Positions 1,050 through 64,000 of a DNA stretch of 64,000 bases are shown here, piece after piece. The stretch comes from Takakia lepidozioides (Eukaryota; Plantae; Bryophyta). The notes under the pieces were generated by a model. It searched no databases and was not told the DNA's origin. It worked only from the letters and a program-made list of their open reading frames with translations. Position 1 is the first letter of the stretch. The number at the start of each line of letters is the position of its first letter. The stretch is taken from NCBI GenBank assembly GCA_030704615.1, contig CM060733.1, positions 14,694,001 to 14,758,000 on the forward strand, given 5' to 3'. Made by a program: the position numbers and the translations under genes.

Positions 1050-1800
1050 CTTTGTCCTCACCCCTTGGTAGTTCCCTCTCAACTGTTCGAAGAACTCCAC
1101 AACAGGGTTGAAGGCAGGCACGGGTACTGGTGCAGGTGCGGTAGTGGCTTGGGTGGACGTCGTAGCTACGGTACCACCGGTCCTACTAATCCCACTGCTG
1201 CTTGCTGAACCTGCCGGTGCAGCGGCAGGTGTAGCCACTGCCCTCGTGACTCTAGTGCCCCTAGTGATGGAGACATAGTCGGGTGACCAGTACATCCTCC
1301 ACTCCTCGATCTCAACCTCATGCCCCCACCTGAACTCATGGTAATCATCCATAGACGGCCCCTCAAGGTGCTGAAACAGCCCCTTCCATGCCATGAAAGG
1401 CGTAAATAGTTGTGGATTGCGCATTTGCTGCAAATCACACCAACTATCAAACTCTTGCACAAAATCATCCAACTCGATGGTGACCACCGCCCCAGAGTAC
1501 CTTCGTGGCCCCTTGGTAGCTCCATACATCTCCTCCATTGTGTCCCACAACAATGGTAAGGAAACAACTTGCACCGCCGGTACGAGTCATCCTGATTCAG
1601 AATCCGAATCAGAACCTTCCGTAGAAGACACAGGAGGTGAAGGTGGCCTAAACCGCACACCTCGTCTCGTGTACCCACTAGTATCGCTAGTGCTCAAACC
1701 GACACTATCCCCAGCAACTAATGGCACCTCCGTGTTGACACTCAACTGGTCATGAACATGTCCGTAACCCCCTCTCCACAAGGTAACCGGGTAAAGAACC
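1050..1800 (-). mobile_element. Ty3/gypsy retrotransposon copy 1: leader and 5' part of gag, interrupted by the DNA transposon at 1049/1050
   Basis: ORF 1017..1574 (TMEEMYGATKGPRRYSG...FDSWCDLQQMRNP...YWSPDYVSITRG...GNYQGVRT) is nearly identical to the gag pieces at 2901-3176 (+) and 17563-17806 (-). Confidence 0.85.
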
Positions 1801-2593
1801 TGTTGCGGCTTATGGTTTGGAATACTAGGTTCCTAACATAGCCTACACCTGTACCTGCATCCACCGCAAGCACTCCTATGGTTGGCTGGTCATTACCTCC
1901 AACCTCACCACAGGAGAAATAATGATGGTCTGGCTGGTCATCACCCCAGCCTCACCATCGATAGCATGCTCTAGGACTGGCTGGTGATCAAATCCGGACC
2001 AATCACCTATAAAAACAAGCGCCCACACAAAACTAGCATGGCGCACAGTCAAGCATGCAAGTATGGAGGGGATCCAAACACAAGAAATCAGAATGACAAC
2101 TCCCCCACACCAAAAACAACTCCACGGTGTTGCTCCTGCAAGGACACCCCAGCCCAAACCCGGACTGACTCTTGCCTCCACCTACGGAAAGGTCTTGGCC
2201 TAATGAGAGGGTGGAAACTACGAGGAAGAGAAGCTAAAGCAATGCCTAACCCCAGCATGCCCTCATCCCAACACTCTTCCTCTCCTCTCTTCCCTCACTT
2301 TGCATGACCATGGGAATATCATGAAGATACTCCTCAAACCGCCCTCCACGAGCTTCAAAATTCGGCCTTCAAGACCACATGCCAGTCCTTACGCAGTCCA
2401 CCAGTTCCTCCACGAGTCAGCACAGGCCGTCCACAGGTCAACACGGGCCACCACAGACCAGCACAGACCCACACAGCTCACTGATCACAGCCGTCACAGC
2501 CCCACACAGGCCACAGCCTGTCACAGCCCTACACAGGTCACAGGGTCACAGCCCCAAAGGCCACATATCACGTAGTGGTAAAATAACTTGACA
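1801..2593 (-). mobile_element. Putative 5' LTR of retrotransposon copy 1
   Basis: The minus strand begins TGTCAAGTTATTTTACCACTA, identical to the first 21 nt of the LTR at 20800, and ends ...GCAACA just upstream of the gag leader. The interior is unlike the 20800 LTR and the 3' boundary is inferred. Confidence 0.55.
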
Positions 2594-2745
2594 CGGTGAA
2601 TGAATTAGGAACTCGATATGTGTCGGCTACTTGCAAACACATGCTCATGGGTTAGGTTTGAGTCCCGCTATTTTTTGAACCGTGTGTATCTTGCCATTTT
2701 TCAAAATTCAAAAATTAAAAAAAAACTCAAAATTAAAAATACAAG

Positions 2746-2766
2746 TTTAGGGTTTAGGGTTTAGGG
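2746..2766 (+). repeat. Interstitial plant telomeric repeat (TTTAGGG)3
   Basis: Three exact TTTAGGG units, directly abutting the truncated 5' end of retrotransposon copy 2. Confidence 0.85.
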
Positions 2767-3176
2767 CCACTAGTTGCTGGGGACAGTGCCGGTTCGAGCA
2801 CTAGCGATACTAGTGGGTACACGAGACGAGGTGTGCGGTTTAGGCCACCTTCACCTCCTGTGTCTTCTATGGAAGGTTCTGATTCGGATTGTGAATCAGG
2901 ATGACTCATACCGGCGGTGCAAGTTGTTTCTTTGCCACAATGGAGGAGATGTATGGAGCTACCAAGGGGCCACGAAGGTACTCTGGGGCGGTGGGCACCA
3001 TCAAGTTGGATGATTTTATCCAAGAGTTTGATAGTTGGTGTGATTTGCAGCAAATGCGCAATCCACAACTATTTACGCCTTTCATGGCATGGAAGGGGCT
3101 GTTTCAGCACCTTGAGGGGCCGCCTATGGATGATTACCATGAGTTTAGGCGGGGGCATGAGGTTGAGATCGAGGAG

Positions 3177-3620
3177 CCCCCAGAATGTCGTCTTCTGCTT
3201 GTCCGCCTCCTTGATTGGCAACTGGTGATATCCGGATCGTAAATCCAAAGTGCTAAAGACCTTAGCATGCCCGATGGCATCAAAGATCTCCTCTGGTGTT
3301 GGCATGGCATACTTATCGGACTTGGTCTGATGATTTACAGGCCGGTAATCACCGCACATACGTCTCTCCGTCCAATTGCCATAGACATCCTATTTGGCTG
3401 GCATCACTGTGGCTGAAGCATACTCTCCACCAGAGAGCTCCACCAAACCTGCCTCCCAGAGATCTTGAGTCCTCATCTGGATCAAAGACCTCTCCATGTC
3501 ACTGTATCTATAGGGTCTCCGAAAGATTGGCGGGTCAATGACCAACTCAATACGGATCTCTTGACCCTTCAGTGCTCCCAAGTCCTTCAAACTGAAGGCA
3601 AAGCAATTCCTGTAAGCCCT
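3177..3620 (-). pseudogene. Reverse transcriptase N-terminal half (inside the inverted segment)
   Basis: PIFRRPYRYS...YASATVMPAK*DVYGNWTERRMCGDYRPVN...DKYAMPTPEEIFDAIGHAKVFSTLDLRSGYHQ...KTTFWG; one in-frame stop at 3390. Confidence 0.92.
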
Positions 3621-3929
3621 CAGGAACCGCCATATACGTCGTCTCTCTCCTCTGGTGACAATGGGTACAATGTCAGGCTCCCAATTGTCCTCCGTAACTG
3701 CAACCTTAAGTCCAGTGGGCTTAGAGGTAGAGGACGCGTCTAGTGGTTGCTATGTTGCATCCTCTTGAGCAGTACTCCTTACCTGCTCAGTCAGTGACAA
3801 GGCCTCATCCTGCCCCATCATCTCATCCTCAAGGACTTCCTCCACCCGAGAAAAATCCCCAACCTCATCTTTCATCGCCACCTTGGCTGCCAACTCCCTT
3901 TGAACCTCACTTGACGACGTGATGCCTCA

Positions 3930-4775
3930 AAAAGAGACGACACCGCTATGGTACCAGTGGTAAAACCCATTGCCCACTCACACACGTCAGCATTAGGCTC
4001 CACTAACTACTGCAACTGAGCATCCCACAGGAGGCCAGGTCCACTATCCCGGAAAGCATGCGATCCTGGGAAGCTGAGCAGTGTAGGTAATGCTGCTCGT
4101 GGTTGACCCACCTTGTTGACCACTGCCAAAGGCGAACCGTCATCGTGTCTCACACGCTGAGACTGCCTCCCTGTGTCCAGAATGCTATCCACTGTGAGAT
4201 GTGCTGGCCGCTGCACCCCATCAAATGCACGCTTGAGCAGTGCGGGTGACATCACTGTAGCTGCATCTAGTAACACTGCTGACCCAAGCCACGACCGGAC
4301 TTGATGCACACTGGCCATCACCTGGCCCGAGAATCGCCCATCAGTGGCACATTCTCCAAGATGTATGCTAGAGATACAGCTTGATGAAGCTGCAAGTGGC
4401 GCAAAACCCGCACCATCTCCCAAAACAGACCCGACCTCGAGTCTCGCAATCCATTGTCATGCCCGGCTGATGAATGCCCTTGGCAGGGCCAACCTGCCAC
4501 TACCAGATCAATGGAGCCAACCCGCTCCAAATCCTGCGCCCCCAGCAATGAAATGTCTGCTGGCAAGGCCTGCTGATATCCACGAATTGCAGACACCGAC
4601 AACAACTCAGGGTACCGCTGCACCAACTGAGCAACATGGCGAAGTGAAATGCGTCGTGCAGTCTCATCCCTCTCCACATACAGGTAACGCCGAACTCGTA
4701 CACCTGCCTGTAACACAGCAGCCAATCCGGTGCTGATCCCGCCAAACAAGTCCAGAAGACAAATGCCTTCATCCA
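3930..4775 (-). pseudogene. C5 cytosine DNA methyltransferase domain embedded in the retrotransposon pol
   Basis: Motif I LLDLFGGI, motif II YVERD, motif IV DLVVAGWPCQG (catalytic PC), SGLF, motif VI YILENV. After a frameshift near 4320 it reads LLDAATV...LPTL...EPNADVCEWAMGF (motif IX-like). It is in frame with the upstream protease; there is a stop at 4007 and no motif VIII RxR is visible. Confidence 0.9.
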
Positions 4776-5169
4776 GATACTGCCACATAATAGGTGTGGT
4801 GTCCAATGGAGACAACTGAGGTGGTCCTGGTGCAATCCCCGCACTCTCCTCCTCTCCTGACGGTACAAAAGCCTCCACCCAGGCTTGTTGCACCCGTCGA
4901 TCAGCATCCCGCTGCAAATCCTTGCTCGTGCCCCACAATGGAGTCTGAGCAACCATGGTAGGCAACTCCGCCATACCATACATATCATCCTGCTCTCCCA
5001 GAGGTGGCACATCCTCTGAATGAGCGTTGTCCTCAAGCAGCTCTCCGGGCCAATTCACTGCCGCTGTGAATGCTGCTAGTGTCGGCATCTTGCCTCGTTG
5101 GGCAACCGCAACTCCTCCTATGAACGTCACAGGGAGCTGCACACGCCGGCCCTCCCCTGACTGCCATCC

Positions 5170-5570
5170 AGGCCTATAGGAAGCTGAATCCTCCCAAAAA
5201 TCTAGGGTGAAGCCCATGGGGTACAACACTGCCCCACCAACCAGGAAATCGTACGAGACCGCGTCTGTCACAATGGCCTTGGTTCGCATTACTGAGCCAT
5301 CTGTAGGGTGATCCGGCCGTAGTCTGATAGCCAACTCATGCCGTGGCATGCCCCGAGCCTGCTCCGATCCTCCCAGAGACGTCTGTATCTGGAAAGGACA
5401 AGGCTCCATATCCGCCTCCGTGAGGCCCAAGCCTGCAATAGCAGCTCTGCCCAACATCAATGGCTGAGATCCCGAGTCCAACAAGACCCGCAGTGGCCGG
5501 TACCTCTTGCCTGCCGGTCCACTCAAACAGAAAATGCCATCCTGGTTGTCTAACATGACAACTCCAGGTG
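5170..5570 (-). pseudogene. Retroviral-type aspartic protease domain
   Basis: RVLLDSGSQPLMLG active-site motif and YDFLVGG C-terminal motif in ORF 4318..5622. Confidence 0.85.
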
Positions 5571-5989
5571 CAGCGTAGCTACGGCGTGAGCCCAGCCCCG
5601 TGAGCCTGGGAGCTGAGCTCACGTTGAAGCTGCAAAGCGTGAGCTGAGCTCACACTTCAGGGAAGCGTGAGCGGCACAAATCTGCTGGAGAAGCAGGTCC
5701 TATAGGCGAGGATTGCAGGAAGAGGGCCTATTACCGTGGACAAAACAAAGGGGGCCACCATGCACCGTGTCTGCAATGCCTGCACAAAAAGAGGAATATG
5801 AAAATATGGCAGATTTGAGCTCAGAATGATTGACACACTTTATTTGAATTCACAGATAGACGCTTACAATGAATGGCATGTGCATTTACCCTGGTTCCGT
5901 GAACGAAATGTATGTGTTTGTCATAAATGCAAAGTCTTCACACGGTAACCTGGAAACCAGCATGGGAAGCGGGCATGGCTCGTATGTGT

Positions 5990-7203
5990 TCAAAGAGAAT
6001 TTGGCGGAGCCCCACGTGAGGTGTCCCGCTGCAGAAGGGTGATGACTTCTCCGTAGCCTAGTGTGGCTTGGTGAATGAATTGGTCTCTCTTACCGTCGCA
6101 ACACATAATTACAAGGTATATGTAATATTGATGCTTGCAGAGGATCCACTTCCCTCTCATGCCGAGAGCGCCCTCACGCATCGTTACAAAATCCGGACAA
6201 GTGCATTTAGGGAAATTCCCCACGGTAACCTGATATTCTTTGCCATGAAAAATTGAGCCAATAGACAGCACTGTGTAAATCCGTCCATACCCCGGGGCAG
6301 GGACTTCAGTGATACGAGTCACCCGAGCCTGCAAAATTCTAGCCGATTCCATCTTGCATTTGTGATTTGCACCCGATTCGTCATCAGCCGATTAGCGCTG
6401 TTTCTCAGCCGAGGGCAAGAAATATTCACGCACTTGCAATGCCCAACGCAAACCGACCTTCGAAATTTCAATCCAATGTCGTTGTGGATGTTCGATGTTT
6501 TTGTCATGCACCAAGGGTGTCCGTCATGTTTCTTGTCCATGCCTTGCAGAAGCCTAGCCAGTCCACTGGAAGACGTGGGAGGGTTGAGCTCAAACAAGAT
6601 GTCCCCATCAAACTTTGTTGGCACGTATTGAACCCACTGCACACGAAGGGACTCCCAATCAACAAAACGCAGCTCGCTCTTGCACCCAGGCACCCTGCGA
6701 GGGCTTTCAATTTCGGAATGACACTCGTTATCTCCTGCAATTCGTCATCATCCAAGATGGGAGTCTGCACTGGCGGAGGAATCTCAGAAACATCCTCCGA
6801 GGACGAGTCTGAAAGAGTCACGAATGTAGTGGATGTGCTCACCTCTTGTTTCACATGAACTGTGCCCTTCTGCTGCACGACTGATGCTGCAGTGCCAGGG
6901 GTAACTACTGATCCTGCTGATTGTCTTCTCTCTTTTCCAAGGACACAGGAAGTGCCTGGAAGGACTCTCCACTTCCTTCCACACTCGCCAACCAATGGTT
7001 TCTCCAAGTGCCCAGAATCCAAATTCCCATCCTCGTCATACACCTCTTTTTGAACAAGCAGAGAACCCAATTCCAGCGGGAACACTGTAACCAGCTCATC
7101 CTCATGAACAACTGCAAACCCATTGTCGTCTGTAGTGGTAGTCAGTGGAAGACTACCTGCATTGGAATGAAATCGAGCGAGTCTATCTTGCTCCCTCGAC
7201 ATG
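5990..7203 (-). pseudogene. Internally deleted, frameshifted transposase-like gene: N-terminal region, WRKY/GCM1-like Zn domain, C-terminal SWIM finger
   Basis: Overlapping ORFs 6504..7367, 6319..6693 (DGHPWCMTKTSN...FRRSVCVGHCKCVNISCP, GCM-like) and 5990..6352 (YQVTVGNFPKCTCPDF...CKH, SWIM CxCxnCxH). No DDE core is seen between them. Confidence 0.7.
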
Positions 7204-7559
7204 TTTTCCTCCACTGACCAAAAATTGCGATTCACAACGGAATCCCCGAACTGATAGCCCGTAATTCTCGAAAAGGGATCCACCACAAACAAACTGAGGT
7301 CAATAAGGTTAGCACTAACCCAAAGACTGTGGGCGATGCCTGCAAAGGATGTAGGAATGACATGCACCGAACTTCGCAGACAACCACACTGAGAGACACC
7401 AACCAGAAAAACTGTTTAGGGTGACAAGAAGCCACAAGAAGCCGTGTTGTATTTGGATGAAAAACAAACCCTAAACATGACATGAAACCATCAATTATGG
7501 AAAGACGACAACAACCCTAGAGAGCAGTAAACAGGAAGACCCCGAATGTAATGAGGTTG

Positions 7560-8383
7560 TGTTGTGCACCTTGTCATTGTTTTTTTCATTTGGAATCGGC
7601 CTTATAGGGTATCTCTTTGAGCTTCAATGCACACTTACCTGGCAGCTCTAGCAGTGTGTGTCAACGCACACTGTTTGAGCCCACCTTGTCATTCTTTTTT
7701 TCATTTGGAAATCGGCCTCATAGGCATCTCTTTGTTGTTCAATGCACACTTACCTGTCAGCTCCAGCAGTGTGCGTCAACGCACACTATTTGAGCCCACC
7801 TTGTCATTGTTTTTTTTCATGTGAAAATCGGCCACATAGGGCATCTCTTTGAGCTTCAATAAACACTTACGTGGTAGCTCCAGCAGCATGCGTCAATGCA
7901 CACTGTTTGAGCCCACCATGTCATTATATTTTTAATCTGAAAATCGGCCCCATAGGGCATCTCTTTGAGCTTCAATGCACACTTACGTGGCAGCTCAAAT
8001 AGTGTGCGTCAACGCACACTGTTTGAGCCCAACTTGTCATTGTTTTTTTCATGTGAAAATTGGCCACATAGCGCATGTATTTGAGGTTCAATGCAGACCT
8101 ACCTGGCAGCTCAAACAGTGTGCGTCAACGCACACTGTTCCAGCCCACCATGTCATTGTTTTTTTTATATGAAAATCGGCCACATAGGGCATCTCTTTTA
8201 GCCTCAATACACACTTACGTGGCAGATCAAACAGTGTGCGTCAACGCACACTGTTTGACCCCAACATGTCTTTATTTTTTTCATGTGAAAATCGGCCACA
8301 TAGAGCATGTATTTGAGGTTCAATGCAGACTGACGTGGCAGCTCAAACAGTGTGCGTGAACACACACTGTTGCAGGCATCCAT

Positions 8384-8418
<35 letters not shown>

Positions 8419-8956
8419 AAAATCGGCCACATAGGGCATCTCAAGGCAGCTCCAGCAGTGTGCGTCAACGCACACTGTTTGAGAACACCATGTCATTATT
8501 TTTTTAATCTGAAAATCGGCCACATAAGGCATCTCTTTGAGCTTCAATGCACACTTACGTGGCAGCTCAAATAGTGTGCGTCAACGCACACTGTTTGAAC
8601 CCAACTTGTCATTGTTTTTTTCATGTGAAAATTGGCCACATAGGGCATGTATTTGAGGTTCAATGCAGACTTACCTGGCAGCTCAAACAGTGTGCGTCAA
8701 CGCACACTGTTCCAGCCCACCATGTCAGTGTTTTTTTTTATATGAAAATCGGCCGCATAGGGCATCTCTTTTAGCCTCAATACACACTTACGTGGCAGCT
8801 CAAACAGTGTGCGTCAACGCACACTGTTTGACCCCAACATGTCTTTATTTTTTTCATGTGAAAATCGGCCACATAGGACATGTATTTGAGGTTCAATGCA
8901 GACTTACGTGGCAGCTCAAACAGTGTGCGTCAACGCACACTGTTGCAGGCATCCAT

Positions 8957-8991
<35 letters not shown>

Positions 8992-10472
8992 AGAATCGGC
9001 CACATAGGGCATCTCAAGGCAGCTCCAGCAGTGTGCGTCAACACACACTGTTTGAGCACACCATGTCATTATTTTTTTAATCTGAAAATCGGCCACATAA
9101 GGCATCTCTTTGAGCTTCAATGCATACTTACGTGGCAGCTCAAATAGTGTGCGTCAACGCACACTGTTTGAACCCAACTTGTCATTGTTTTTTTCATGTG
9201 AAAATTAGCCACATGGGGCATGTATTTGAGGTTAAATGCAGACTTACCTAGCAGCTCAAACAGTGTGCGTCAACGCACACTGTTCCAGCCCACCATGTCA
9301 TTGTTTTTTTTTATATGAAAATCGGCCACATAGGGCATCTCTTTTAGCCTCAATACACACTTACGTGGCAGCTCAAACAGTGTGCGTCAACGCACACTGT
9401 TTGACCCCAACATGTCTTTATTTTTTTCATGTGAAAATTGGCCACATAGGGCATGTATTTGAGGTTCAATGCAGACTTACGTGGCAGCTCAAACAGTGTG
9501 CGTCAACGCACACTGTTGCAGGCATCCACGTTTTTATTTTTATTTTTATTTTTATTTTTCTGAAAATCGGCCACATAGGGCATCTCAAGGCAGCTCCAGC
9601 AGTGTGCGTCAACGCACACTGTTTGAGCACACCATGTCATTATTTTTTTAATCTGAAAATCGGCCACATAAGGCATCTCTTTGAGCTTCAATGCACACTT
9701 ACGTGGCAGCTCAAAGAGTGTGCATCAACGCACACTGTTTGAGCCCAACTTGTCATTGTTTTTTTCATGTGAAAATTGGCCACATAGGGCATGTATTTGA
9801 GGTTCAATGCAGACTTACCTGGCAGCTCAAATAGTGTGCGTCATCGCACACTCTTCCAACCAACCATGTTTTTATTTTATTTTATTTTTTTATTTTTATT
9901 TTTAAAATAAAAATCGGCCACATAGGGCATCTCTTTGAGCTTTAATGCACACTTACGTGGCAGCTCCAGCAGTGTGCGTCAACGCACACTGTTCGGGTCC
10001 ACCATGTCATTATTTTTTTAATCTAAAAATCGGTCACATATGGCATCTCTTTGAGCTTCAATGCACACTTACGTGGCAGCTCAAATAGTGTGCGTCAACG
10101 CACACTGTTTGAACCCAACTTGTCATTGTTTTCTTCATGTGAAAAATTGGCCACATAGGGCATGTATTTGAGGTTCAACGCAGACTTACCTGGCAGCTCA
10201 AACAGTGTGCGTCAACGCACACTGTTCCAGCCCACCATGTCATTGTTTTTTTTTATATGACAATCGGCCACATAGGGCATCTCTTTTAGCCTCAATACAC
10301 ACTTACGTGGCAGCACAAACAGTGTGCGTCAACGCACACTGTTTGACCCCAACATGTCTTTATTTTTTTCATGTGAAAATTGGCCACATAGGGCATGTAT
10401 TTGAGGTTCAATGCAGACTGACGTAGCAGCTCAAACAGTGTGCGTCAACGCACACTGTTGCAGGCATCCATG

Positions 10473-10503
<31 letters not shown>

Positions 10504-12188
10504 TAAATCGGCCACATAGGGCATCTCAAGGCAGCTCCAGCAGTGTGCGTCAACGCACACTGTTTGAGCACACCATGTCATTATTTTTTTCATCTGAAAA
10601 TCGGCCACATAAGGCATCTCTTTGAGCTTCAATGCACACTTACGTGGCAGCTCAAATAGTGTGCGTCAACGCACACTTTTTGAGCCCAACTTGTCATTGT
10701 TTTTTTCATGTGAAAATTGGCCATATAGGGCATGTATTTGAGGTTCAATGCAGACTTACGTGGCAGCTCAAACAGTGTGCGTCAACGCACACTGTTGCAG
10801 GCATCCACGTTTTTACTTTTATTTTTATTTTTATTTTTCTGAAAATCGGCCACATAGGGCATCTCAAGGCAGCTCCAGCAGTGTGCGTCAACGCACACTG
10901 TTTGAGCACACCATGTCATTATTTTTTTCATCTGAAAATCGGGCACATAAGGCATCTCTTTGAGCTTCAATGCACACTTACGTGGCAGCTCAAATAGTGT
11001 GCGTCAACGCACACTTTTTGAGCCCAACTTGTCATTGTTTTTTTCATGTGAAAATTGGCCACATAGGGCATGTATTTGAGGTTCAATGCAGACTTACCTG
11101 GAAGCTCAAACAGTGTGCGTCAACGCACACTGTTCCAGCCCACCATGTCAATGTTTTTTTTTATATGAAAATCGGCCACATATGGCATCTCTTTTAACCT
11201 CAATACACACTTACGTGGCAGCTCAAACAGTGTGCGTCAACGCACACTGTTTGACCCCAACATGTCTTTATTTTTTTCATGTGAAAATTTGCCACATAGG
11301 GCATGTATTTGAGGTTCAATGCAGACTTACGTGGCAGCTCAAACAGTGTGCCTCAACGCACACTGTTGCAGGCATCCACGTTTTTTTTTGTTTTTCTGAA
11401 AATCGGCCACAGAAGGCATCTCTTTGAGCTTCAATGCACACATACGTGGCAGCTTAAATAGTGTGCGTCAACGCACACTGTTTGAGCCCAACTTGTCATT
11501 GTTTTTTTCATGTGAAAATTGGCCACATAGGGCATGTATTTGAGGTTCAATGCAGACTTACCTGGCAGCTCAAATAGTGTGCGTCATCGCACACTGTTCC
11601 AACCAACCATTTTTTTTTTTTTTTTAATTTTTTTTTTAATTTTTTTTTGAAAATCGGCCACATAGGGCATCTCAAGGCAGCTCCAGCAGTGTGCGTCAAC
11701 GCACACTGTTTGAGCACACCATGTCATTATTTTTTTCATCTGAAAATCGGCCACATAAGGCATTTCTTTGAGCTCCATTGCACACTTACGTGGCAGCTCA
11801 AATAGTGTGCGTCAACGCACACTTTTTGAGCCCAACTTGTCATTGTTTTTTTTCATGTGAAAATTGGCCACATAGGGCATGTATTTGAGGTTCAATGCAG
11901 ACTTACCTGGCAGCTCAAACAGTGTGCGTCAACGCACACTGTTCCAGCCCACCATGTCAATGTTTTTTTTTATATGAAAATCGGCCACATATGGCATCTC
12001 TTTTAGCCTCAATACACACTTACGTGGCAGCTCAAACAGTGTGCGTCAACGCACACTGTTTGACCCCAACATGTCTTTATTTTTTTCATGTGAAAATTTG
12101 CCACATAGGGCATGTATTTGAGGTTCAATGCAGACTTACGTGGCAGCTCAAACAGTGTGCCTCAACGCACACTGTTGCAGGCATCCAC

Positions 12189-12233
<45 letters not shown>

Positions 12234-14735
12234 AAAATCGGCCACAGAAGGCATCTCTTTGAGCTTCAATGCACACATACGTGGCAGCTCAAATAGTGTG
12301 CGTCAACGCACACTGTTTGAGCCCAACTTGTCATTGTTTTTTTCATGTGAAAATTGGCCACATAGGGCATGTATTTGAGGTTCAATGCAGACTTACCTGG
12401 CAGCTCAAATAGTGTGCGTCATCGCACACTGTTCCAACCAACCATATATATATATTTTTTATTTTTTTTTAAAAAAAAAAATCGGCCGCATATGGCATCT
12501 CTTTGAGCTTTAATGCACACTTACGTGGCAGCTCCAGCAGTGTGCGTCAACGCACACTGTTCGAGTCCACCATGTCATTATTTTTTTAATCTGAGAATCG
12601 GCCACATATGGCATCTCTTTGAGCTTCAACGCACACTTATGTGGCAGCTCAAATAGTGTGCGTCAACGCACATTGTTTGAACCCAACTTGTCATTGTTTT
12701 TTTCATGTGAAAATTGGCCACATAGGGCATGTATTTGAGGTTCAATGCAGACTTACCTGGCAGCTCAAACAGTGTGCGTCAACGCACACTGTTCCAGCCC
12801 ACCATGTCATTGTTTTTTTTTATATCAAAATCGGCCACATAGGGCATCTCTTTTAGCCTCAATACACACTTACGTGGCAGCTCAAACAGTGTGCGTCCCC
12901 ACCATGTCATTGTTTTTTTTTATATGAAAATTGGCCACATATGGCATCTCTTTTAGCCTCAATACACACTTACGTGGCAGCTCAAACAGTGTGCGTCCCC
13001 ACCATGTCATTGTTTTTTTTTATATGAAAATCGGCCACATAGGGCATCTCTTTTAGCCTCAATACACACTTACGTGGCAGCTCAAACAGTGTGCGTCAAC
13101 GCACACTGTTTGACCCCAACATGTCTTTATTTTTTTCATGTGAAAATTGGCCACATAGGGCATGTATTTGAGGTTCAATGCAGACTTACGTGGCAGCTCA
13201 AACAGTGTGCGTCAACGCACACTGTTGCAGGCATCCACGTTTTTTTTTTTTTTTTTTTTTTTTCGAAAATCGGCCACATAGGGCATCTCAAGGCAGCTCC
13301 AGCAGTGTGCGTCAACGCACACTGTTTGAGCACACCATGTCATTATTTTTTTAATCTGAAAATCGGCCACATAAGGCATCTCTTTGAACTTCAATGCACA
13401 CTTACGTGGCAGCTCAAATAGTGTGCGTCAACGCACACTGTTCCAGCCAAGCATGTTTTTTTTTTTTTTTTTTTTTTTTTTTATTTAAATTTAATTTATT
13501 TATTTAAAAATCGATCACATAGGGCATCTCTTTGAGCTTCAATCCACACTTACGTGGCAGCTCCAGCAGTGTGCGTCAACGCACACTGTTCGAGTCCACC
13601 ATGTCATTATTTTTTTAATCTGAAAATCGGCCACATATGGCATCTCTTTGAGCTTCAATGCACACTTACGTGGCAGCTCAAATAGTGTGCGTCAACGCAC
13701 ACTGTTTGAGCCCAACTTGTCATTGTTTTTTTCATGTGAAAATCGGCCACATAGGGCATGTATTTGAGGTTCAATGCAGACTTACCTAGCAGCTCAAAGA
13801 GTGTGCGTTAATGCACACTGTTCCAGCCCACCATGTCATTGTTTTTTTTATCTGAAAATAGGCCACATAGAGCATATCTTTGAGCTTCAATACACACTTA
13901 CGTGGCAGCTCAAACAGTGTGCATCAACGCACACTGTTTCAGCCAACTTGTCATTGTTTTTTTCACGTGAAAATTGGCCACATAGGGCATGTATTTGAGG
14001 TTCAATGCAGACTTACCTGGCAGCTCAAACAGTGTGCGTCAACGCACACTGTTCCAGCCCACCATGTCATTGTTTTTTTTATCTGAAAATCGGCCACATA
14101 GGGCATCTCTTTGAGCGTCAATGCACACTTACCTGGCAGCTGGCATTTTAGAATCGACCACAAAGGTCATCTCTGTGAGTTTCAATTCACACTTACCTGG
14201 CAACCCAAACGGTGTGCGTCAACGCACACGGTTTGAGCCCCCCTGATTTGCTTGTTTATGGATATGGAAATTGTGCACCTACGGCTAGTCTGGCAAGTTC
14301 ATTCGACTCCAAAATGGAAGCTCAAACAGTATGCGCGGACGCACACTGTTTGAGCCCCCTTCACTGCCTTTTATTTTATTTCAAATTGGCCACTTATGGC
14401 CACTATGCCATATTAAAATCACACCTTATTGCAAGCTCAAACAGTGTGCGGCAACGCACACTGTTTGAGCTTCCTTATGTGATTGATTTTGATGTGAAAA
14501 TCGGTCTCCTGGGGCCACTTTGGCAGGTTGAATCCAATCTTTATTGGAAGCTCAAACAGTGTGCGGCAACGCACACTGTTTGAGCTTCCTTATGTGATTG
14601 CTTTTGATTTGAAAATCGGTCCCCTGGGGCCACTCTGGCAGGTTGAATCCAATCCTTATTGGAAGCTCAAACAGTGTGCGGCAACACACACTGTTTTGAG
14701 CCCCCTTCGTGCTTGTTTTTCTATGTGAAATTGGG
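7560..14735. repeat. Tandem array of ~116-bp units (roughly 60), each with a 36-bp palindrome; higher-order structure
   Basis: Unit ~TGAAAATCGGCCACATAGGGCATCTCTTTGAGCTTCAATGCACACTTACGTGGCA-GCTCAAACAGTGTGCG-TCAA-CGCACACTGTTTGAGC-CCACCATGTCATTGT(T)n. A 573-bp period is visible as homologous ORF starts at 8323, 8896 and 9469. Confidence 0.97.
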
Positions 14736-14773
14736 CCTAACAGGGCCAGTATGCATGCTCAAAACTTCCATAG

Positions 14774-15253
14774 TTGTCAAAACTCCCATGGTATTTGGAT
14801 TGCCCTCCTTCTGAGACCCCAGCTCAGGATGTGTCTTTGAGGAGAGAGAATGAGCGTATAGCAGCCACCGCCGCAGCAGCCGACCTCGACATTCATGATA
14901 GAAATTTGAGGACTCTTGCAGAGAAGGAGCCTCCCGCTCAGGATACCCTGGGTAGAGGTAGAAAGGCAAAGGGAAAAGATGTTGTTGGTGGTGTGAGGAA
15001 AGGAAGGGGTAGGGGGAAGGGGGCACAAGGGCAGGTAGGTGGGCTATCACACCTATTTGGACTTCTTTCAAGTCCTCCTCGGTCTTACGTGCAACCTGTC
15101 TATGCGGAGGCACTCGCAACAAGCATGTCCATTCATGGCACTCGTTGTCCGCCCATTGACGGCCGTGGTAGAAGACGTGGTGTTGGGGCCAGAATCTTTG
15201 TGGATGACATAGCACAGGAGGTCGAGAGTGATTCTGATGACTGTGACACTTGA
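14774..15253 (+). CDS. Transposon accessory ORF of unknown function (basic GR/K-rich stretch, acidic C-terminus); probably partial
   Basis: The last 70 codons (GLSHLFG...RIFVDDIAQEV..D.DDCDT*) are indel-free and share the stop with 325-537 in the other copy. No in-frame ATG start is evident. Confidence 0.45.
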   Translation: MSKLPWYLDCPPSETPAQDVSLRRENERIAATAAAADLDIHDRNLRTLAEKEPPAQDTLGRGRKAKGKDVVGGVRKGRGRGKGAQGQVGGLSHLFGLLSSPPRSYVQPVYAEALATSMSIHGTRCPPIDGRGRRRGVGARIFVDDIAQEVESDSDDCDT

Positions 15254-15409
15254 TATGAAGTTTTCTTTTGGTTTTATTCGGGGCCAAATTTGAAATGGGA
15301 TGGTTGTGTGTCCTTGTTGTCCTGTTTGCAATGTGTGCGTGGGATGCAACTTCATGGGAACAAACTATTATTGGAGATGGGGGTTGCATGGACTGCCCGG
15401 ATTGTTCCT

Positions 15410-15716
15410 TCAATCTATTTAGAGTTTTGTGGACCTCACAGGCTTGAGTGCATTTCAAAAACAAACAATCGACTTTGATTCGTGTACAGCATTCTCGCAT
15501 CATTTGCTCGTTTGTCTCCAAACCATTCCTGCTAGAAGAATGCTTGGTGAATCCATCGAAGTGAAGTCCACGTGATCAAAGATCGTTCAGGCATTCTCAA
15601 ATCTGGTGAGCATCCATGATGCTCCCGCACATACTTGGCATGTTCACAAAGGTGGTGAGTAAGAAAAGATTTCGCAGGGATCCGCTTTAGATGATGTCAG
15701 TGTGCACCTCCTCACG
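15410..15716 (-). pseudogene. Captured, decayed PLS-class PPR gene fragment inside the DNA transposon
   Basis: EEVHTDII*SG..NLFLLTTFVNMPSMCGSIMDAHQI / MPERSLITWTS / GFTKHSSSRNGLETNEQMMREC parallels [68 protein letters not shown] of the PPR at 43904. A shorter homolog lies at ~700-890. Confidence 0.8.
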
Positions 15717-16134
15717 ACGTACCCACATTCCAATGCAGAGTTTGGCTTTCCGTCCTTAAGCTCCCGACAGTCTCGAGGCTGAGCCAAAAGCCCAGGCCCT
15801 CCTGAGGCCTAGTTTTTGGGCAAATTACACACAGCAGATTGATGCTTGTGTGAAGGGATTTCTAGAGGATATCTGGAAAACCTGGATTAATTCTTTATAT
15901 GAAGGAAAGTCTTTGATAACATCTAGATGGATGCAATGGATACAAAGGATGGATACAATGGATGTAATACATCCAGTCTGCATTCCCGGGAAATGGCTGT
16001 TCAACCCGCGGTAATAGGTGACACCCGCGGAAATAGGCCCTGTATGCATGCTGATGTGGCGTGAGCCTGTGCTGGGCTCACGGTTTCCTGGGCTCACAGG
16101 CTCACGCCTCCGGGCTCACGGAATAGCACCCCCC

Positions 16135-17806
16135 CTCCAGGTGTAACCATGGTGCGCTCAATGGCTGGCCTAGCTGGCAGCTCCATCAACCTGGCAGCTG
16201 CAGCTTGCCATGGCGCCGCCGTGGCAGTCTTGACCCTCAAATCCGAGGATCCCTCCGGCACTACACCTCCCACTATCTCCGCAGAAGATGAAGTAACCTC
16301 CCCACTCTCACAGAGTGTAGCTGTCAGCCTGAAGACCTCAGCTGGTCTTACCCCCGGCGTCGCAATCATGGTAGCCGAGAACAATGGAGCCTGGCACACA
16401 GATGTGGCCGCTCCTAGTAGCACACTAGCTGCCGTAGCCTTGGCAATACTAGGTAGTGGTGCTACCCGTGTAGCTCTCCCCAATGGCATAGTAACCTCCG
16501 CCTCGGTAACAGTCGGGCGAGAACTAGGTGCCATGGATGGCGTCGACACTGTCTCCGCCAATGTGAACGACTGAGGAAGCCTAGCCTGACGGCTTGCCTC
16601 CCCACGCTGTGGATCCAACTCCACCTCTGCACCTCGTGGCTCAAGAACTCGTGCTGCTCCTCGAGTCACGGCTGCAACAGACTCCACCTGCACTAGTGGT
16701 AGTGCTGCTGTACACATGAATCCCATGTCTCCCATATCTCCTCCCTTAGGAGCAGGAGGTGGACCATCCGGCCTTAGAGCCGGTACCACCTGAGCTGTAG
16801 CCATGGCAGCGAGCCTCTGCTGTAGCTGCTGAAGCCGGTTGGCCATGCCTTGGTCAACACCCTGACCTCCGCGTCCTTGGCCATGTTGAGCTTGCCCTTG
16901 GCCTGCACCTCATGGCTGGCCACCTCGTCCTCTCTGGGCTGCTCCACCTTGCCCCCGGCCACCATTGTTCCCTTGGAACTAGCCTGGGCGCAACTCAGGA
17001 TACAAACCATAACACTGGGCCTCTCCATGCCCGTGCTTGCCACAATGCCCACACTGCAACTGTGCATGTGCCGGCCCTTTGCCTCCCTCTGGGAAATCCT
17101 TCTATGGGGTCCTCCACATGTCCAGCACACCACATCCGCTCGTTGTTGGCCAGCAAATGAAGGGAGAGACCCCTGCATCTGAGGTCCTCTCTGCCCTTCC
17201 CTGAGCTTCACCTGAGCCCCCTTGTTGCCTTGAGCACGTTGAGGTAGTGGTTGGCTAGGAGCACCACTACCCCGTGGTGTCTCCTTAGCAAATCCCACCA
17301 TGACCACTCGTTCCTCCACCATGTTGAGCTCTATCCGCTCTGCTAACAAAAACACATTTGCTAAGGTGGGTTGGGCCGCTTGTAGGAGAGTTGCATCCCG
17401 CACCCTTCTCCTCAGCTCCTTGTCCAATATCCCATACCAGAATTGGACTGCCTGAGCTTCCGTAACCCCTTGGGTTACATTTATCAAGCGCCTCATGCGA
17501 GTGAAAGCCTCCCTCAAGCTCTCGGTCGGCTTTCGTTGGAACTCTTGCAAGCTCCGCAACTTCTCTGTCCTCACCCCTTGGTAGTTCCCTCTCAACTCTT
17601 CAAAGAACTCCACAACAGGGTTGAAGGCAGGCACGGGTACTAGTGCTGGTGCGATAGTGGCTTGGGTGGACGTCGTAGCTACTGTACCACCAGTCCCACT
17701 AGTCCCACTGCTACTCGCTGAAGCTGCCGGTGCAGCGGCAGGAGTAGCCACTGCCCTCGTGGCTCTAGTGCCCCTAGTGATGGAGACATAGTCGGGTGAC
17801 CAGTAC
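16135..17806 (-). pseudogene. Retrotransposon gag (C-terminal two thirds) and linker, inverted segment
   Basis: ORFs 16774..17820 (FQRKPTESLREAFTRMRRL major-homology-like region; CWTCGGPH and CGHCGKHGHGEAQC knuckles) and 16094..16846; frameshifted. Confidence 0.85.
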
Positions 17807-19075
17807 AATGAGCACGACAAGGATTGCTTATATCAGTGGCGGTTCTTACCATTTGGGCTTAAGAATGCTCCTGCAGAGTTTCAGAGAGTCATGGATAGGA
17901 TTCTAGCAGGGGTGGACTTTGCTCGGTGTTATATAGATGACATCATCATCTTTAGTGTTACGATGAAGGAGCATGAGAGACACCTTCAGGTGGTATTGGA
18001 GCGCTTGAGAGCGCACGGATTGAAGTTGCATCCGGGGAAGTGCAAGTTTTTCCACAACCAGATTGAGTATCTGGGTCACATGATATATCCTGGAGGATTG
18101 GGGGTACAACAGACTAAGGTAGAGGCCATTGCACAAATTCCACGCCCCACGGATGTGAGCCGAGTTCGAGCTTTCATGGGGTTGACAAACTATTATAGAC
18201 GGTTTGTCAAGGGATTTAGTACCATTGCAAAGGCTCTAACCAAGCTGACCAAGATGGACCAGGAGTGGCAGTGGGAAGATGAGCAAGAACGAGCTTTTCA
18301 AGAGCTCAAGGCGAGGTTGACCTGGACGCCTATCCTGAGACGACCTATCAGGGGGCGTCCCTTTCAACTGCATACGGGTTGGAGCATGCTGGGGCTTGGA
18401 ACGGTGCTCACACAGATGGATGATGAGGGAAGAGAATTCGTAGTGGCTTATGCTAGCCGCTCAAACAACGCTGTAGAGACTAAGTACAGCTCATATGAGG
18501 GAGAGTGCTTAGCTGCAGTGTGGGCCGTGGCACACTTCAGGTGCTATCTATACGACAATCTTTTCACCCTTGTCACGGATCACCAACCACTCAAGTGGTT
18601 GATGGAGTCAGACAAGCTTACGGGGAAGCTTGCACGGTGGGCACTCATACTCCAGGAGTATGACTTTCAGGTTGTGCATCGACCGGGTTTGGTCAATCGG
18701 GATGCGGATGGATTGAGTCGCAATCCATGCATGAGCCAGCAGGATGACATTGGAGCTCGGTGGCATGGTGAGACGGACGAGGAGATGGTGCCGGGATGGC
18801 ACGCATCTGCATTTTTGTGTATCTTGGCATCGGGAGGTCAGGTTGGACCTACAACAGGGATGACTGTAGACGGAGTGTCTGAGGACCCTGAGGCTAGTGA
18901 TGAGCCAGGTGGTGCCAGAGATATACATGAGGATTCTGCTGTGTTGGACTACCTCCGCATGGGAGACACGGCAGCCATTGTGACTACCAAGGAGAGGGAT
19001 CGGATCCTGCAACGAGCCAAGAGGTTCAAATGGGGGGGATACACCTACTTCGAGTGTGGGAGGATGGTCGGGTGA
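17807..19075 (+). pseudogene. RT C-terminal half and RNase H
   Basis: LYQWRFLPFGLKNAPAEFQR, YIDDII, KC.F....YLGH, RAFMGLTNYYRRFV; RNase H LHTGWS (catalytic D replaced by G), YEGECLA, TDHQPL, ADGLSR. Confidence 0.95.
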
Positions 19076-20360
19076 GGATTGTGCCTCACCCCACACAGCG
19101 TGCACAGTGCGGCATGCCCATGAGGAGTTGGGGCATTTTGGAGTGCGACACACTCACAGTTTACTGCAAGGGCAGTATTGGTGGCGTGGTATGCATACAG
19201 AGGTGCAACAGTTCGTGGCTAGGTGCATGGTGTGTGACAGGGTGCGTGCTTCATTCAACACCCCTACACCACAGTTGCATCCTTTACCAATCATGGGATT
19301 GGGCTACAGGTGGAGTCTTGACTTCGCAGGACCGTTGCTACTGACTATGCGCCACCACAGATATGTGTTGGTGATGGTGGAGCACTTCTCCAAGTGGATT
19401 GAGTTGGTTCCATTGCCTGACAAGGCTAGTGAGGGGGCTGCGTATGCATTCTTGGATCGTGTGCTTAGCCGATTTGGTGCTCCAGCTGAGGTACTCACGG
19501 ACCAAAGGAGAGACTTCTTGGGGGAGTTTCAGGCTTTGTGTGATAAAGCCTTGATAGACCACCGCACCACTTCTCCGGATCATCCTGAGGCCGATGGCTT
19601 AGCAGAGAGAGTTGTTCAGACGGTGAAGAGGGGTTTGCGCAAGTATGGCTTGCAGAAGGGACACCTAGGAGATTGGGATCTTCAGGTTCCTTGGTTAGCC
19701 ATGGGCTACAAGTTCAGCAAACAAGCATCACTTGCCTCCTTCTCACCATATTTCCTTCTCTTTGGCCGAGAGCCGGATTTGCCTGCATCTATTTGTAGGG
19801 ACACTGCTCAAGTCCTTAACCTTGACGATCCGGACGTGTGGGTACGTGCATGTGATCAGCATGCAGAGTTGTTCAAGAAAGTCATGCCCATGGTTTTTGA
19901 GAACCTTGCCATTGCACAGTATCGTGATACGTTGAGGTATGCCACTATACGTGGTGGAGGATATTGTCCTGGGGTTCGGAGGTTTAGCCCTGGTGACTAT
20001 GTTTATTTGCAGCAGACTGCTCATATGACTCTGGATGTTACTGCAGGGCGTGTTATTCTGAGGGTTCGAGAGGTGTTGCCCTCAGGGGTCCTGATCTTGG
20101 AGGGTCGGGATGGCATGACTTGGAAGGACCATGTGCGTAATTGTGCGCCATGTCACCTTCCCAATGTCGATGGCAGAGTTGACCCAAACTTGGCAGTGGT
20201 ACCTGCAGGTTTGAGGTGCATGCTCTGTGGGTCTGCCAAAAGGGCAGCCACCATGCTGGTGTGTGATCGATGCTCAAGGGGTTGGCATATGGGATGCTTG
20301 ACACCACCTCTTGAGAAGGTTCCTGATGGAGATTGGTTGTGTCCACACTGCTTGGGATAG
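19056..20360 (+). CDS. Integrase (HHCC + DDE) with C-terminal PHD finger; frameshifted relative to RT/RH
   Basis: AHEELGHFG...CMVC; WSLDFAGP, VLTDQ, DGLAERVV; terminal C4HC3 CMLC-x11-CDRCSRGWHMGCLTPPLEKVPDGDWLCPHC at 20217-20351. Confidence 0.93.
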   Translation: MGGWSGEDCASPHTACTVRHAHEELGHFGVRHTHSLLQGQYWWRGMHTEVQQFVARCMVCDRVRASFNTPTPQLHPLPIMGLGYRWSLDFAGPLLLTMRHHRYVLVMVEHFSKWIELVPLPDKASEGAAYAFLDRVLSRFGAPAEVLTDQRRDFLGEFQALCDKALIDHRTTSPDHPEADGLAERVVQTVKRGLRKYGLQKGHLGDWDLQVPWLAMGYKFSKQASLASFSPYFLLFGREPDLPASICRDTAQVLNLDDPDVWVRACDQHAELFKKVMPMVFENLAIAQYRDTLRYATIRGGGYCPGVRRFSPGDYVYLQQTAHMTLDVTAGRVILRVREVLPSGVLILEGRDGMTWKDHVRNCAPCHLPNVDGRVDPNLAVVPAGLRCMLCGSAKRAATMLVCDRCSRGWHMGCLTPPLEKVPDGDWLCPHCLG

Positions 20361-20616
20361 TGGCAATGGACATGACTGGAGGCAGCTAACAAGACATGGG
20401 AGGCCAAGCTCATAGGAGTCAATACATGAGATCCCAAGCTCAAGTTCACAGATTGCAAGACGGCGACTAACGATGGGGCAACTCTTGCACCCGGCCTCTT
20501 GATCTATCGAGTTTGAGTGTAGTAGGGATAGTGGTAGAGGACTTAGTGAGGCTATGGTCACTATCACATCTTGTGGCTACCTGGACTTAGAGGGACCTAA
20601 GCACCAGCTAGGGGGG

Positions 20617-21293
20617 CAATTGTGTGGACTAGTGACTGCCATAGTGGGCAGCATAGTGGCAGCCTAGTGACTGACTAGCTGTAGCCTAGTGGTTGGACTA
20701 GTGGCTGGACTAGTGGTATACTAGTGTGTGGTGTGCACATGTGTTGTGTGGTTTTGGACAGCGATGTAGTTGTGTAGCGATATGTATGTGCACGACAGCT
20801 GTCAAGTTATTTTACCACTAGTTTGAAACTAGCTAGGAAATAACTAGCTTTTACATATTGACATTTGGGATTGGCCCAAGTGTCAATCCAGGGGTCAAGG
20901 CAGATTTAGGCCCTGGAGTGGTTATCTTCACGGCAAGCGCGGGAGGCTCATCTTTCTCGAGTTGAGCCTCACTGCGCCTAGCTATGGCACCGTAGTGTGG
21001 ATTCCCCATGGCGTGGGGTGCACTTGGCTTGACTTGTATTTGAGTGATGAGGTTATATATGCATGAGTTTATGCTTCAGCTTTGTGAGCTCGCATGAGCT
21101 TGTGCTTGTATTCTTCTTCTTTATCAATTGTGTGGACTAGTGACTGCCATAGTGGGCAGCATAGTGGCAGCCTAGTGACTGACTAGCTGTAGCCTAGTGG
21201 TTGGACTAGTGGTATACTAGTGTGTGGTGTGCACATGTGTTGTGTGGTTTTGGACAACGATGTAGTTGTGTAGTGATATGTATGCGCACGACA
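20617..21293 (+). mobile_element. 3' LTR (20800-21293, TGTC...GACA) preceded by an extra copy of its last ~170 bp
   Basis: Direct repeat 20617-20797 versus 21125-21293; PPT AGGGGGG at 20610-20616; TATA-like TTATATAT at ~21053. Confidence 0.75.
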
Positions 21294-45400: not shown

Positions 45401-46126
45401 AGCCTCATTCCAACAATGGAGCATTTTAGCTGCATGGTGGACCTTCTTGGCCGTGCTGGGAGATTGGATGAGGCAGAGCACTTCATCATTAAAATGCCAA
45501 TCGAACCAGGTGCTTCAGTGTGGGGGGCCTTGCTTGGTGCCTGCAGAATTCATGGTGATGTGAGGAGGGCAGAACATGCAGCTAAATGTCTTCTCGAGTG
45601 CGCACCTCAGGATGCTGCAACTTATGTGCTGCTATCAAACATCTATGCTGCAGCTGGCAGGTGGGACGATCTAGCAAAGGTGAGAAAAATGATGGTAGAC
45701 AGAGGTGTCAGAAAGGAGCGAGGGCAAAGCTGCATTGAGGTGGACAACCTGTTGCATACATTCGTTGTAGAAGACAAAGCACATCCCCAAATTCAGCAGA
45801 TCCATGCTGAATTGGAGAGATTGTCTGTGTTGATGAGGGAGGCGGGATACGTGCCTGACACACGGTTTGTATTGCATGATGTGGAGGACGAGCAGAAGGA
45901 ATTCTCTCTGTGCCACCACAGTGAGAAATTGGCCATTGCTTTTGGGCTCATTAATACGCCCTGTGAGAAACCCATCCGCATTATCAAGAACCTTCGCGTC
46001 TGTGGTGACTGCCACACTGCGACCAAGTTCATCTCAAAGATCGTTAGGCGAGAGATTGTTGTGCGGGATGCCAACCGCTTTCACCATTTCCAAGATGGAG
46101 TCTGTTCTTGTGGGGATTATTGGTGA
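42402..46126 (+). CDS. PLS-class pentatricopeptide repeat protein with E1/E2/DYW deaminase domain (organellar C-to-U editing factor)
   Basis: ORF 43904..46126 has P-L-S triplets, [21 protein letters not shown] and terminal CSCGDYW. A probable first exon 42402-~42535 ([20 protein letters not shown]..., transit-peptide-like) splices in frame to 43903; that exon is less certain than the main ORF. Confidence 0.95.
42825..43700 (-). mobile_element. Decayed RTE-X-like LINE fragment in the putative PPR intron
   Basis: [58 protein letters not shown], the same family as 38610 and 53085. The 5' extent is approximate. Confidence 0.75.
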
Positions 46127-61452: not shown

Positions 61453-62282
61453 TAGACTTATCTGTTCAAGTTGGGCTTGGGCCAGCCTTGGGTCATGGGA
61501 TCTGAGCTGCTGGAGAACCGAGTGGTTCTCCATATGTGGGTTTTTTCTTTGACGTGAGGCTGTAGCTACCTGTTTGTACCTGTTTCCTCACACATGGCCC
61601 ACTGGCAGTAGCCTAGCAGAGAGACTGAAGGCCACTTTACACTAAGGGACAGATTGAGGTGATAGTTGAAAAATTGACGTGTTGGCACACGTGATTGGAT
61701 AAAAAACAGAGAATGTCATCATGTGGGCAATTTACATTGTGTTGCGGCAATGAGATGCCACTGCTTACAGGGAATAGTAGAGTCAGCACGTGGCAACAAA
61801 CATTACATGAACAAAATTGAATTCTTCTTGGAACTGATGCACACAGGCTAGTCGAAACCAAAATTAATTTTTTCATCAACAAAATGGATTCACATTGAAT
61901 TGAAGTGTTGTTGAAGTTCATATACATTAACTGATAGCTGAAATGAAACTGCATGTTATCCTCAACAATGTTGAATTCCATCTAACTTTTGTTAGAATGG
62001 ACAAAAAGGGACCCATGGGCATTGGGTTTTTATTTTGTATATTCTTAAGAAAATAAATGTTTTCTCTTCTCATATGCCTAACTCAAAAAACTTATAACAT
62101 GAAGATGTCTAATGTGAAGAAGGTTTGAGAAACGTGCCTAAGCATCTGTTTGTTTTTTTAATAATTATTAGGCGCAAAAATGCCTAAACGGTTGTCTTGG
62201 GACAGTATTAACCATTGAAATGTTGTTGAGAATGATTACACAATAATTGATAATAAAAACAATAATATATTTTTATCATTAT

Positions 62283-63740: not shown

Positions 63741-64000
63741 TTATACCATAATAGAACACAAAATATATGTTTACCATGCTATGTACAAGCATCGCTTTCT
63801 GTAGAAACGCTAAGAATGAATTACCCATTTGGTACTTTTATGTGCATGTCAATGAGGGAAGCACGAGCAGTCAATGCATGATGTGCATAACTCATCATCA
63901 GATCATGCTGACATGCATGGTAGTGAGACTGAGGATATTGAGAGTGAGCATTCTTTGAGTGGTGGAGATCATGGAGTGGATGATGATGACCACTATTCCT

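Follow-up and report, generated by a model that had tools for sequence, protein, structure and literature searches.

The window (the whole stretch of DNA that was analysed, 64,000 nucleotides long) contains a single Gypsy element, which spans 2766-21293 and is broken up by an inversion and a nested transposon. Part of a second copy of the same family precedes it, and host genes follow further downstream. The features are the following.

1050-2593, minus strand: second copy of the family, 5' end and gag, interrupted by a further copy of the nested transposon
2766-3176, plus strand: 5' part of gag, main copy; 93% identical to the second gag copy (1302-1725) and homologous to the N-terminus of Marchantia P0001
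3177-17805, minus strand: internal inversion of 14.6 kb, with breakpoints within gag and the reverse transcriptase (RT)
3177-3749, minus strand: 5' part of RT; RVT_1 E-value 8e-5 on the fragment, below cut-off; 62-77% identity to RT in most related loci
3744-3752, minus strand: in-frame stop and hexamer, TAG CAA CCA; predicted readthrough site between ORF1 and RT
3909-4770, minus strand: DNMT3-like C5 DNA methyltransferase (MTase); motifs I, IV, VI and IX present, VIII and X deleted in the window copy only
5170-5570, minus strand: aspartic protease (PR), LLDSG at 5470-5484; same frame as the N-terminal half of the MTase
5571-16134, no strand assigned: nested DNA-transposon-like insertion, which splits Gag from the protease and contains a 116-bp satellite (TRF)
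16144-17805, minus strand: 3' part of gag, decayed and frameshifted; Retrotrans_gag E-value 0.0028, below cut-off; homology to P0001 and P0007 judged by eye
17806-20360, plus strand: 3' part of RT, RNase H (RNH), integrase (IN; H2C2 and rve) and C-terminal PHD finger, by Pfam
20605-21293, plus strand: polypurine tract and split direct repeats (B1 20617-20797, A2 20800-21124, B2 21125-21293), with a CA end
43883-46126, plus strand: host PPR-E-DYW gene, embryophyte context
54299-54523, plus strand: host SAS-6 exon (SAS-6_N, E-value 2.2e-21)

Anatomy of the element and its surroundings

The main copy is truncated at its 5' end at 2766, and loose ends of other copies fall at 2766 and at 3176. Gag resumes on the minus strand at 17805, and RT goes on from 17806 on the plus strand. 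Within the inverted block are the nested insertion (10.6 kb), the protease and the MTase, flanked by the rest of gag and the 5' part of RT. Contigs of other copies read through the two inversion joints, leading from 3176 into the sequence at 17805 and from 3177 into that at 17806. The nested insertion is flanked by a 9-bp target duplication (5562-5570 and 16135-16143) and is likely a MULE (its SWIM match is weak, with an E-value of 0.06); in copies that do not carry it, 5570 joins the sequence at 16144 directly. Together, these contigs give Gag-PR-MTase-RT-RNH-IN-PHD as the natural arrangement of the element. With the inverted block turned back, the window follows the Ty3/Gypsy order Gag-PR-RT-RNH-IN, which stands uninverted in the related loci L001, L013, L020 and others.

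Pfam E-values at 17806-20360 are, in order, 2.5e-24 (RT), 3.9e-33, 4e-14, 4.7e-12 and 1.3e-10. The protease of the window copy has no match in a Pfam search; it aligns (E-value 3e-38) to Closterium P0070 over the Pfam gag-asp_proteas domain of that protein.

Three TTTAGGG repeats (2746-2766) stand exactly at the 5'-truncation point of the main copy. The nested MULE-like element carries about 60 copies of its 116-bp satellite, which has an internal palindrome, and two copies of this element (5571-16134 and 325-1051) have hit two retrotransposon copies of the same family within 16 kb. The 5' end of the second retrotransposon copy (2300-2593) matches A2 of the main copy for 21 nt only and then diverges; the gag genes of the two copies are nonetheless 93-94% identical.

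Two complete flanking LTRs of identical type were not found; in their place stand split repeats in the layout A-coding-B-A-B. The window copy has no 5' end, and its 3' end reads B-A-B and contains a 91% direct repeat. Five related loci (representing four insertions) show the full layout, and a sixth has A at both ends. A 4-bp target duplication flanks three of the four independent complete insertions (L020, which is the same insertion as L039, L022 and L034), L044 being ambiguous. TG...CA termini and a polypurine tract were found in the relatives, with one 5' TG mutated and a G-rich tract ahead of B1. At the internal B1/A2 boundary (20780-20810 in the window, and likewise in L001, L020, L022 and L034), the element's own 3' CA meets a 5' TG across a 2-nt spacer. 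The boundary has the look of a circle junction that is already in place; the polypurine tract lies before B, not before the TG end. Such an arrangement hints at replication by an uncommon path, with a junction of this kind being cut by a DDE integrase.

The earlier note on this DNA had argued for an embryophyte host, and the neighbouring genes bear this out: the PPR-E-DYW gene, an exon encoding the nucleotide-binding part of a V/F-type ATPase and the SAS-6_N exon are all confirmed. Among the best 120 of 7,697 matches to the PPR-E-DYW gene, the named best ones are all embryophytes, at no more than 69% identity; we take rows labelled 'Gb_' to be Ginkgo. Judging from the SAS-6 exon, the host likely has flagellated sperm. 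This exon, the density of genes and the relatives of the element together suggest a seed-free plant, probably a bryophyte. At 62259-63777 lies a tandem duplication of roughly 500 bp (92%) with unassigned open frames.

The window copy and its family

MTase motifs had been noted between the protease and RT, in the frame of the protease, and all of them were located on the minus strand: motif I (LDLFGG) at 4738-4755, IV (GWPCQ) at 4480-4494, VI (ENV) at 4348-4356 and an IX-like segment at 3965-4000. The protease LLDSG and motifs I, IV and VI share a single stop-free frame, 4318-5649. An HMM search, as the earlier note had proposed, matches the window frame to Pfam DNA_methylase (E-value 4.4e-12; 46.5 bits for a cut-off of 22), a score far enough over the cut-off to show that the motifs are not due to chance. 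Past a frameshift at about 4320 the MTase runs on to 3909, with a stop at 4007-4009. Compared with intact relatives, a deletion of 42 nt (14 codons) near 4254 removes motif VIII, and a second one, of about 190 nt at 3908, takes out motif X. The copy is dead, as had been proposed from the frameshift, the stop and the loss of motif VIII, each of which we confirm.

Are these lesions shared by the family? In four runs (X1, X5, X6 and X8) all of them are private to the window, and other copies read through. At the 4007-4009 stop, 99.5% of the summed depth in run X1 departs from the window copy; at 4320, about half of the depth has an extra base; and the sequence missing at each deletion is provided by loose ends. 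Another organism contributes a 2.3-kb contig (record 25) that reaches from PR into RT and is longer by 42 and 190 bases at the two deletion points. The canonical order of motifs I, IV (PC), VI (ENV), VIII, IX and X is complete in the family, and the window copy is the one without VIII and X.

The family is a high-copy Gypsy retrotransposon and a very abundant one. The element stretch is present in 13 of 17 listed runs (6 studies), the best of which possibly come from the window's own source. Run X1 alone has 30,567 contigs on 2700-5800 (3.1 kb of the element), a contig depth that is not to be equated with copy number. A metagenome scan returned 79 loci, 70 of them with the window architecture or fragments of it and 9 with another architecture. 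Most are decayed: of 27 single-frame loci with the full domain, 3 are free of stops, 2 of these having all five scored motifs. In named species, Marchantia polymorpha accounts for 14 of 22 matches (51-75% identity) and Sphagnum fallax for one. Among the matches listed (120 of 226), nine rows name bryophytes, including Calypogeia fissa, S. troendelagicum, M. paleacea and Riccia sorocarpa, and no vascular plant is named. Closterium also carries relatives of the element. A scan of viral contigs yielded distant phage-type methyltransferases only (16 loci, best E-value 7e-14), so that nothing points to a virus as a recent donor.

The search for other copies that the earlier note had called for thus finds the domain order again in host runs, metagenome loci and named bryophytes. 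That note had also listed, as grounds for giving up its reading, a one-off capture, a family without catalytic motifs and a contig from outside the land plants; we found none of these. The window copy itself is badly rearranged, which could speak for the capture of a host-gene fragment on a single occasion or for an assembly artefact. Yet the same domain order stands in dozens of independent loci and in six named bryophyte species as well as S. fallax, and the contig from another organism spans PR-MTase-RT; the read-through contigs and metagenome loci refute this explanation, to which we attach next to no probability. What the window holds is a dead member of a real Gypsy family with a DNMT3-like C5 MTase in an embryophyte.

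The metagenome loci of the second architecture, RT-RNH-MTase-IN-PHD (L069-L071, L073-L076, L078 and L079; also protein P0100), mostly have long open frames, of up to 3329 aa, and one member is from Scenedesmus sp. PABB004. Their MTases form a clade of their own (support 98), and the parts of the literature examined contained no chlorophyte Gypsy-DNMT3 element. Two retroelement-like proteins, P0068 and P0136, combine a C5 MTase with a Dam-type adenine MTase. P0319 (from a 2.4-kb contig labelled as a bacterial MAG) sits among the element proteins and is likely mis-binned.

The stop codon between methyltransferase and reverse transcriptase

The earlier note had made the MTase a part of Pol, and here our results depart from it. 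A conserved in-frame stop separates the MTase from RT, so the first ORF consists of Gag-PR-MTase and the MTase is its last domain. In four runs (633 contigs in X1), no variant of at least 2% occurs at 3743-3754, a stretch that includes the TAG at 3750-3752, and bases beside the stop do vary (3741, 3742, 3755 and 3760). In the related loci, all 43 homologous junctions (32 distinct) hold a stop, TAG in 31 and TAA in 12, and none a sense codon. These are drawn from the 49 loci of window architecture that reach the end of the MTase (3 others end earlier and 3 are interrupted); the junction search was anchored and allowed substitutions, and a sense codon could have matched. Unbroken Gag-to-MTase proteins of 1319 and 1329 aa end at the junction point, and Marchantia and Calypogeia proteins stop 97-99 aa past motif X, like the metagenome family, as judged from their protein ends.

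Decay at the junction, or recurrent deamination of a CAG codon, was considered as a source of this stop and is ruled out: none of the 43 loci has a sense codon, and none reaches 2% in the host family. By contrast, a genuine decay site at a CAG codon of the same linker reads as a stop in only a minority of loci.

The frame is kept across the stop. RT is in the frame of the MTase in 29 of the 38 loci where RT is linked, and most of the other 9 carry small indels; by arithmetic, the 190-base offset of the spanning contig also brings the MTase frame into register with RT. In the window family and in L013 the stop precedes the hexamer CAA CCA, which fits CAR-YYA exactly. CAR-YYA is known in plants as the type I readthrough signal (PMC2754532, PMC2194720), and PMC13517186 also gives it as a plant-virus signal; the hexamer thereby matches the type I signal of TMV, UAG-CAR-YYA. 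This hexamer is conserved and the linker around it is not. The first AUG past the stop is at codon 85, inside RT, in the window family, and at codon 48 in L013. An invariant stop, a kept frame, a match to CAR-YYA and no near AUG in the window family make readthrough of the conserved UAG the best reading of how RT and integrase would be produced, and we consider it probable.

The stop could instead be a true terminator, with Pol made by reinitiation, by splicing or from an internal promoter. The commonest metagenome family lends itself to this: its hexamer, found in 40 of 43 metagenome loci, is CAA CCC, which departs from CAR-YYA at a single base, and an AUG follows at codon 3 past the stop, so that reinitiation is possible there. 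Tca2 is a precedent, showing that a stop in frame between gag and pol does not have to be crossed by simple readthrough (PMC2194720). Against a terminator stand the frame kept over the stop, the conservation of the hexamer within a variable linker, and the combination, in the window family and L013, of an exact signal with distant methionine codons. On balance we find it unlikely. Readthrough at such a position would have partial parallels in MuLV gag-pol, SIRE1 pol-env and Tca2, where two ORFs in the same frame are parted by a stop (PMC2194720, PMC2754532, PMC13517186). In the window family, by contrast, the stop follows the protease and an extra enzyme rather than Gag, and readthrough is predicted.

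The same PR-MTase-RT order is seen in Closterium P0057, P0070, P0084 and P0300, as well as in P0067 and P0299. In P0067, P0299 and P0300, which are of the Closterium type, the MTase runs on into RT with no stop, and the stop may thus be a land-plant innovation.

The enzyme, its relatives and its possible role

A profile built from 11 unbroken domains gives E-values of 2e-20 for DNMT3A, 6e-17 for DNMT3B, 1e-8 to 3e-5 for DRM-type enzymes and 2e-7 for M.HhaI. The predicted model of the MTase domain has a pTM of 0.75, and all 33 of the Foldseek matches listed are DNMT3A, DNMT3B or DNMT3C, with a TM of up to 0.80; the 943-aa Gag-PR-MTase stretch gave a low-confidence fold model (pLDDT 36). By profile and by predicted fold, the enzyme is closest to DNMT3, in line with the DNMT3-like appearance first noted for its motifs, and not to DNMT1, DNMT2, DRM or bacterial enzymes; its motifs are unrearranged. 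It is under purifying selection between families, with a dN/dS of 0.07-0.20 (18 pairs with a value, near synonymous saturation; 8 more are saturated); RT-RNH gives 0.05-0.07. Comparing decayed copies of a single family puts the MTase ratio at 0.37-0.98.

Such selection might preserve the domain for a task that is not catalytic or does not concern DNA, for instance binding nucleic acids or shaping the particle. The Klebsormidium relative discussed below produced no methylation in yeast, in a test that its authors call inconclusive (PMC5890265). The lack of a CpG signature in the element can be cited on the same side: its CpG observed/expected ratio is 0.46-0.54 against 0.45 in the host PPR gene, a depletion no stronger in the element, and the CpG and CHG ratios reveal nothing specific to it. 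Since depletion does not exceed that of the host gene, there is no signature of self-methylation, and this result supports neither side. The catalytic PC, ENV, the motif VIII arginines and the SAM-binding motifs are nevertheless kept across distant elements, and related SymbioDIRS-Dnmt3 enzymes perform de novo CG methylation, as shown in yeast (PMC5890265). A non-catalytic role is in our estimate very unlikely.

In the MTase tree, the window groups with elements from Marchantia, Calypogeia and Sphagnum (13 rows, support 99), and in the RT tree a land-plant clade (99) is sister to the Closterium-type MTase-RT elements (98); both trees are quick searches without bootstrap, and host DNMT3 and named Klebsormidium sequences are absent from them. 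The lineage likely descends from streptophyte-algal Gypsy elements and is not a fresh capture in land plants.

The Gypsy-DNMT3 kind is already known from KnitGypsy-Dnmt3, an element of Klebsormidium nitens described by de Mendoza et al. in 2018 (PMC5890265), which agrees with the charophyte precedent invoked in the earlier note. Compared by its published description, KnitGypsy-Dnmt3 resembles the window family in its Gypsy domains, its unrearranged, intronless Dnmt3-type domain under purifying selection and, according to the legend of Fig. 4c, its DIRS-like split repeats A-coding-B-A-B. It differs in that a single ORF encodes its DNMT together with RT and RNase H, whereas the window family has a stop between them, and in its algal host, the window family being found at very high copy in a land plant. 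SymbioDIRS-Dnmt3 elements likewise carry a DNMT3-family domain in a retroelement polyprotein, for which a role in cDNA methylation has been proposed; they are, however, DIRS elements of dinoflagellates with a tyrosine recombinase (PMC5890265), where the window family has a DDE integrase and 4-bp target duplications. EpiLTRs are LTR elements that also combine a cytosine MTase with a chromatin-reader domain, but theirs are a DNMT4-sister domain, with DAM, and a chromodomain, in Euglena and a chlorophyte; they are stated to be distinct from streptophyte Gypsy-DNMT3, and the passages of that preprint examined make no mention of bryophytes, land plants or readthrough (bioRxiv 10.64898/2026.05.21.726589). 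The host enzymes PpDNMT3a/b share a DNMT3-type unrearranged catalytic domain and differ by a C-terminal DUF3444 (PMC6453930), which was not found on the element proteins.

The 96-genome table of PMC5890265 lists Physcomitrella and Selaginella, and the words Marchantia and Sphagnum are absent from it; in the parts examined, PMC12344493 (2025) and the preprint of May 2026 (10.64898/2026.05.21.726589) cite only 'streptophytes'. In the literature searched, neither the land-plant members nor the stop is described; PMC5890265 may mention them in its main supplement.

What would such an enzyme do at the end of a Gag-protease ORF? We lean towards a scheme in which the MTase is packaged at capsid level and methylates new cDNA, Pol being supplied by UAG readthrough. 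ORF1 would be translated into Gag-PR-MTase at capsid stoichiometry, and the protease would free the MTase inside the particle. A readthrough fraction, as the CAR-YYA match predicts, would provide RT, RNase H, integrase and the PHD finger. The MTase would then use SAM to methylate the cDNA de novo, either ahead of integration or as it takes place, and the new insertion would arrive pre-marked as host-like or silent. The PHD finger of the integrase may steer integration or chromatin targeting.

An active MTase could also act on nuclear chromatin (the insertion site, sister copies or competing elements) rather than on cDNA in the particle. Plant host DNMT3s work de novo without RdDM (PMC6453930), the integrase has a PHD finger, and an enzyme made at Gag level is presumably more than one cDNA needs. 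Fusion behind Gag and protease, on the other hand, places the MTase in the particle, and we judge a nuclear target improbable relative to packaged methylation of the cDNA.

Plants defend themselves against transposons mainly by cytosine methylation. Despite this defence, the family has kept a methylation writer under selection across liverworts, peat mosses and the window host. What retrotransposon DNMTs do has been a standing question since 2018, their hosts being hard to manipulate; with homologues in Marchantia polymorpha, it becomes testable in a genetic model. The conserved stop shifts the expected MTase dose from Pol level to Gag level, and annotation tools will read such a programmed stop as decay. 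Counts of bryophyte DNA methyltransferases may in turn be inflated or confused by gene models of the element.

More tentatively, and with more doubt than confidence, one may picture a Gypsy lineage of algal origin that kept its DNMT3 through the bryophytes, and in which, on entry into land plants, a leaky, TMV-like stop raised the dose of the enzyme from Pol level to capsid level, each particle bringing a massive amount that places 5mC on the new copy and its surroundings. If this is true, writers encoded by the element would shape bryophyte methylomes beside the host enzymes, and Marchantia would carry more than a dozen unrecognised gene models of element MTases.
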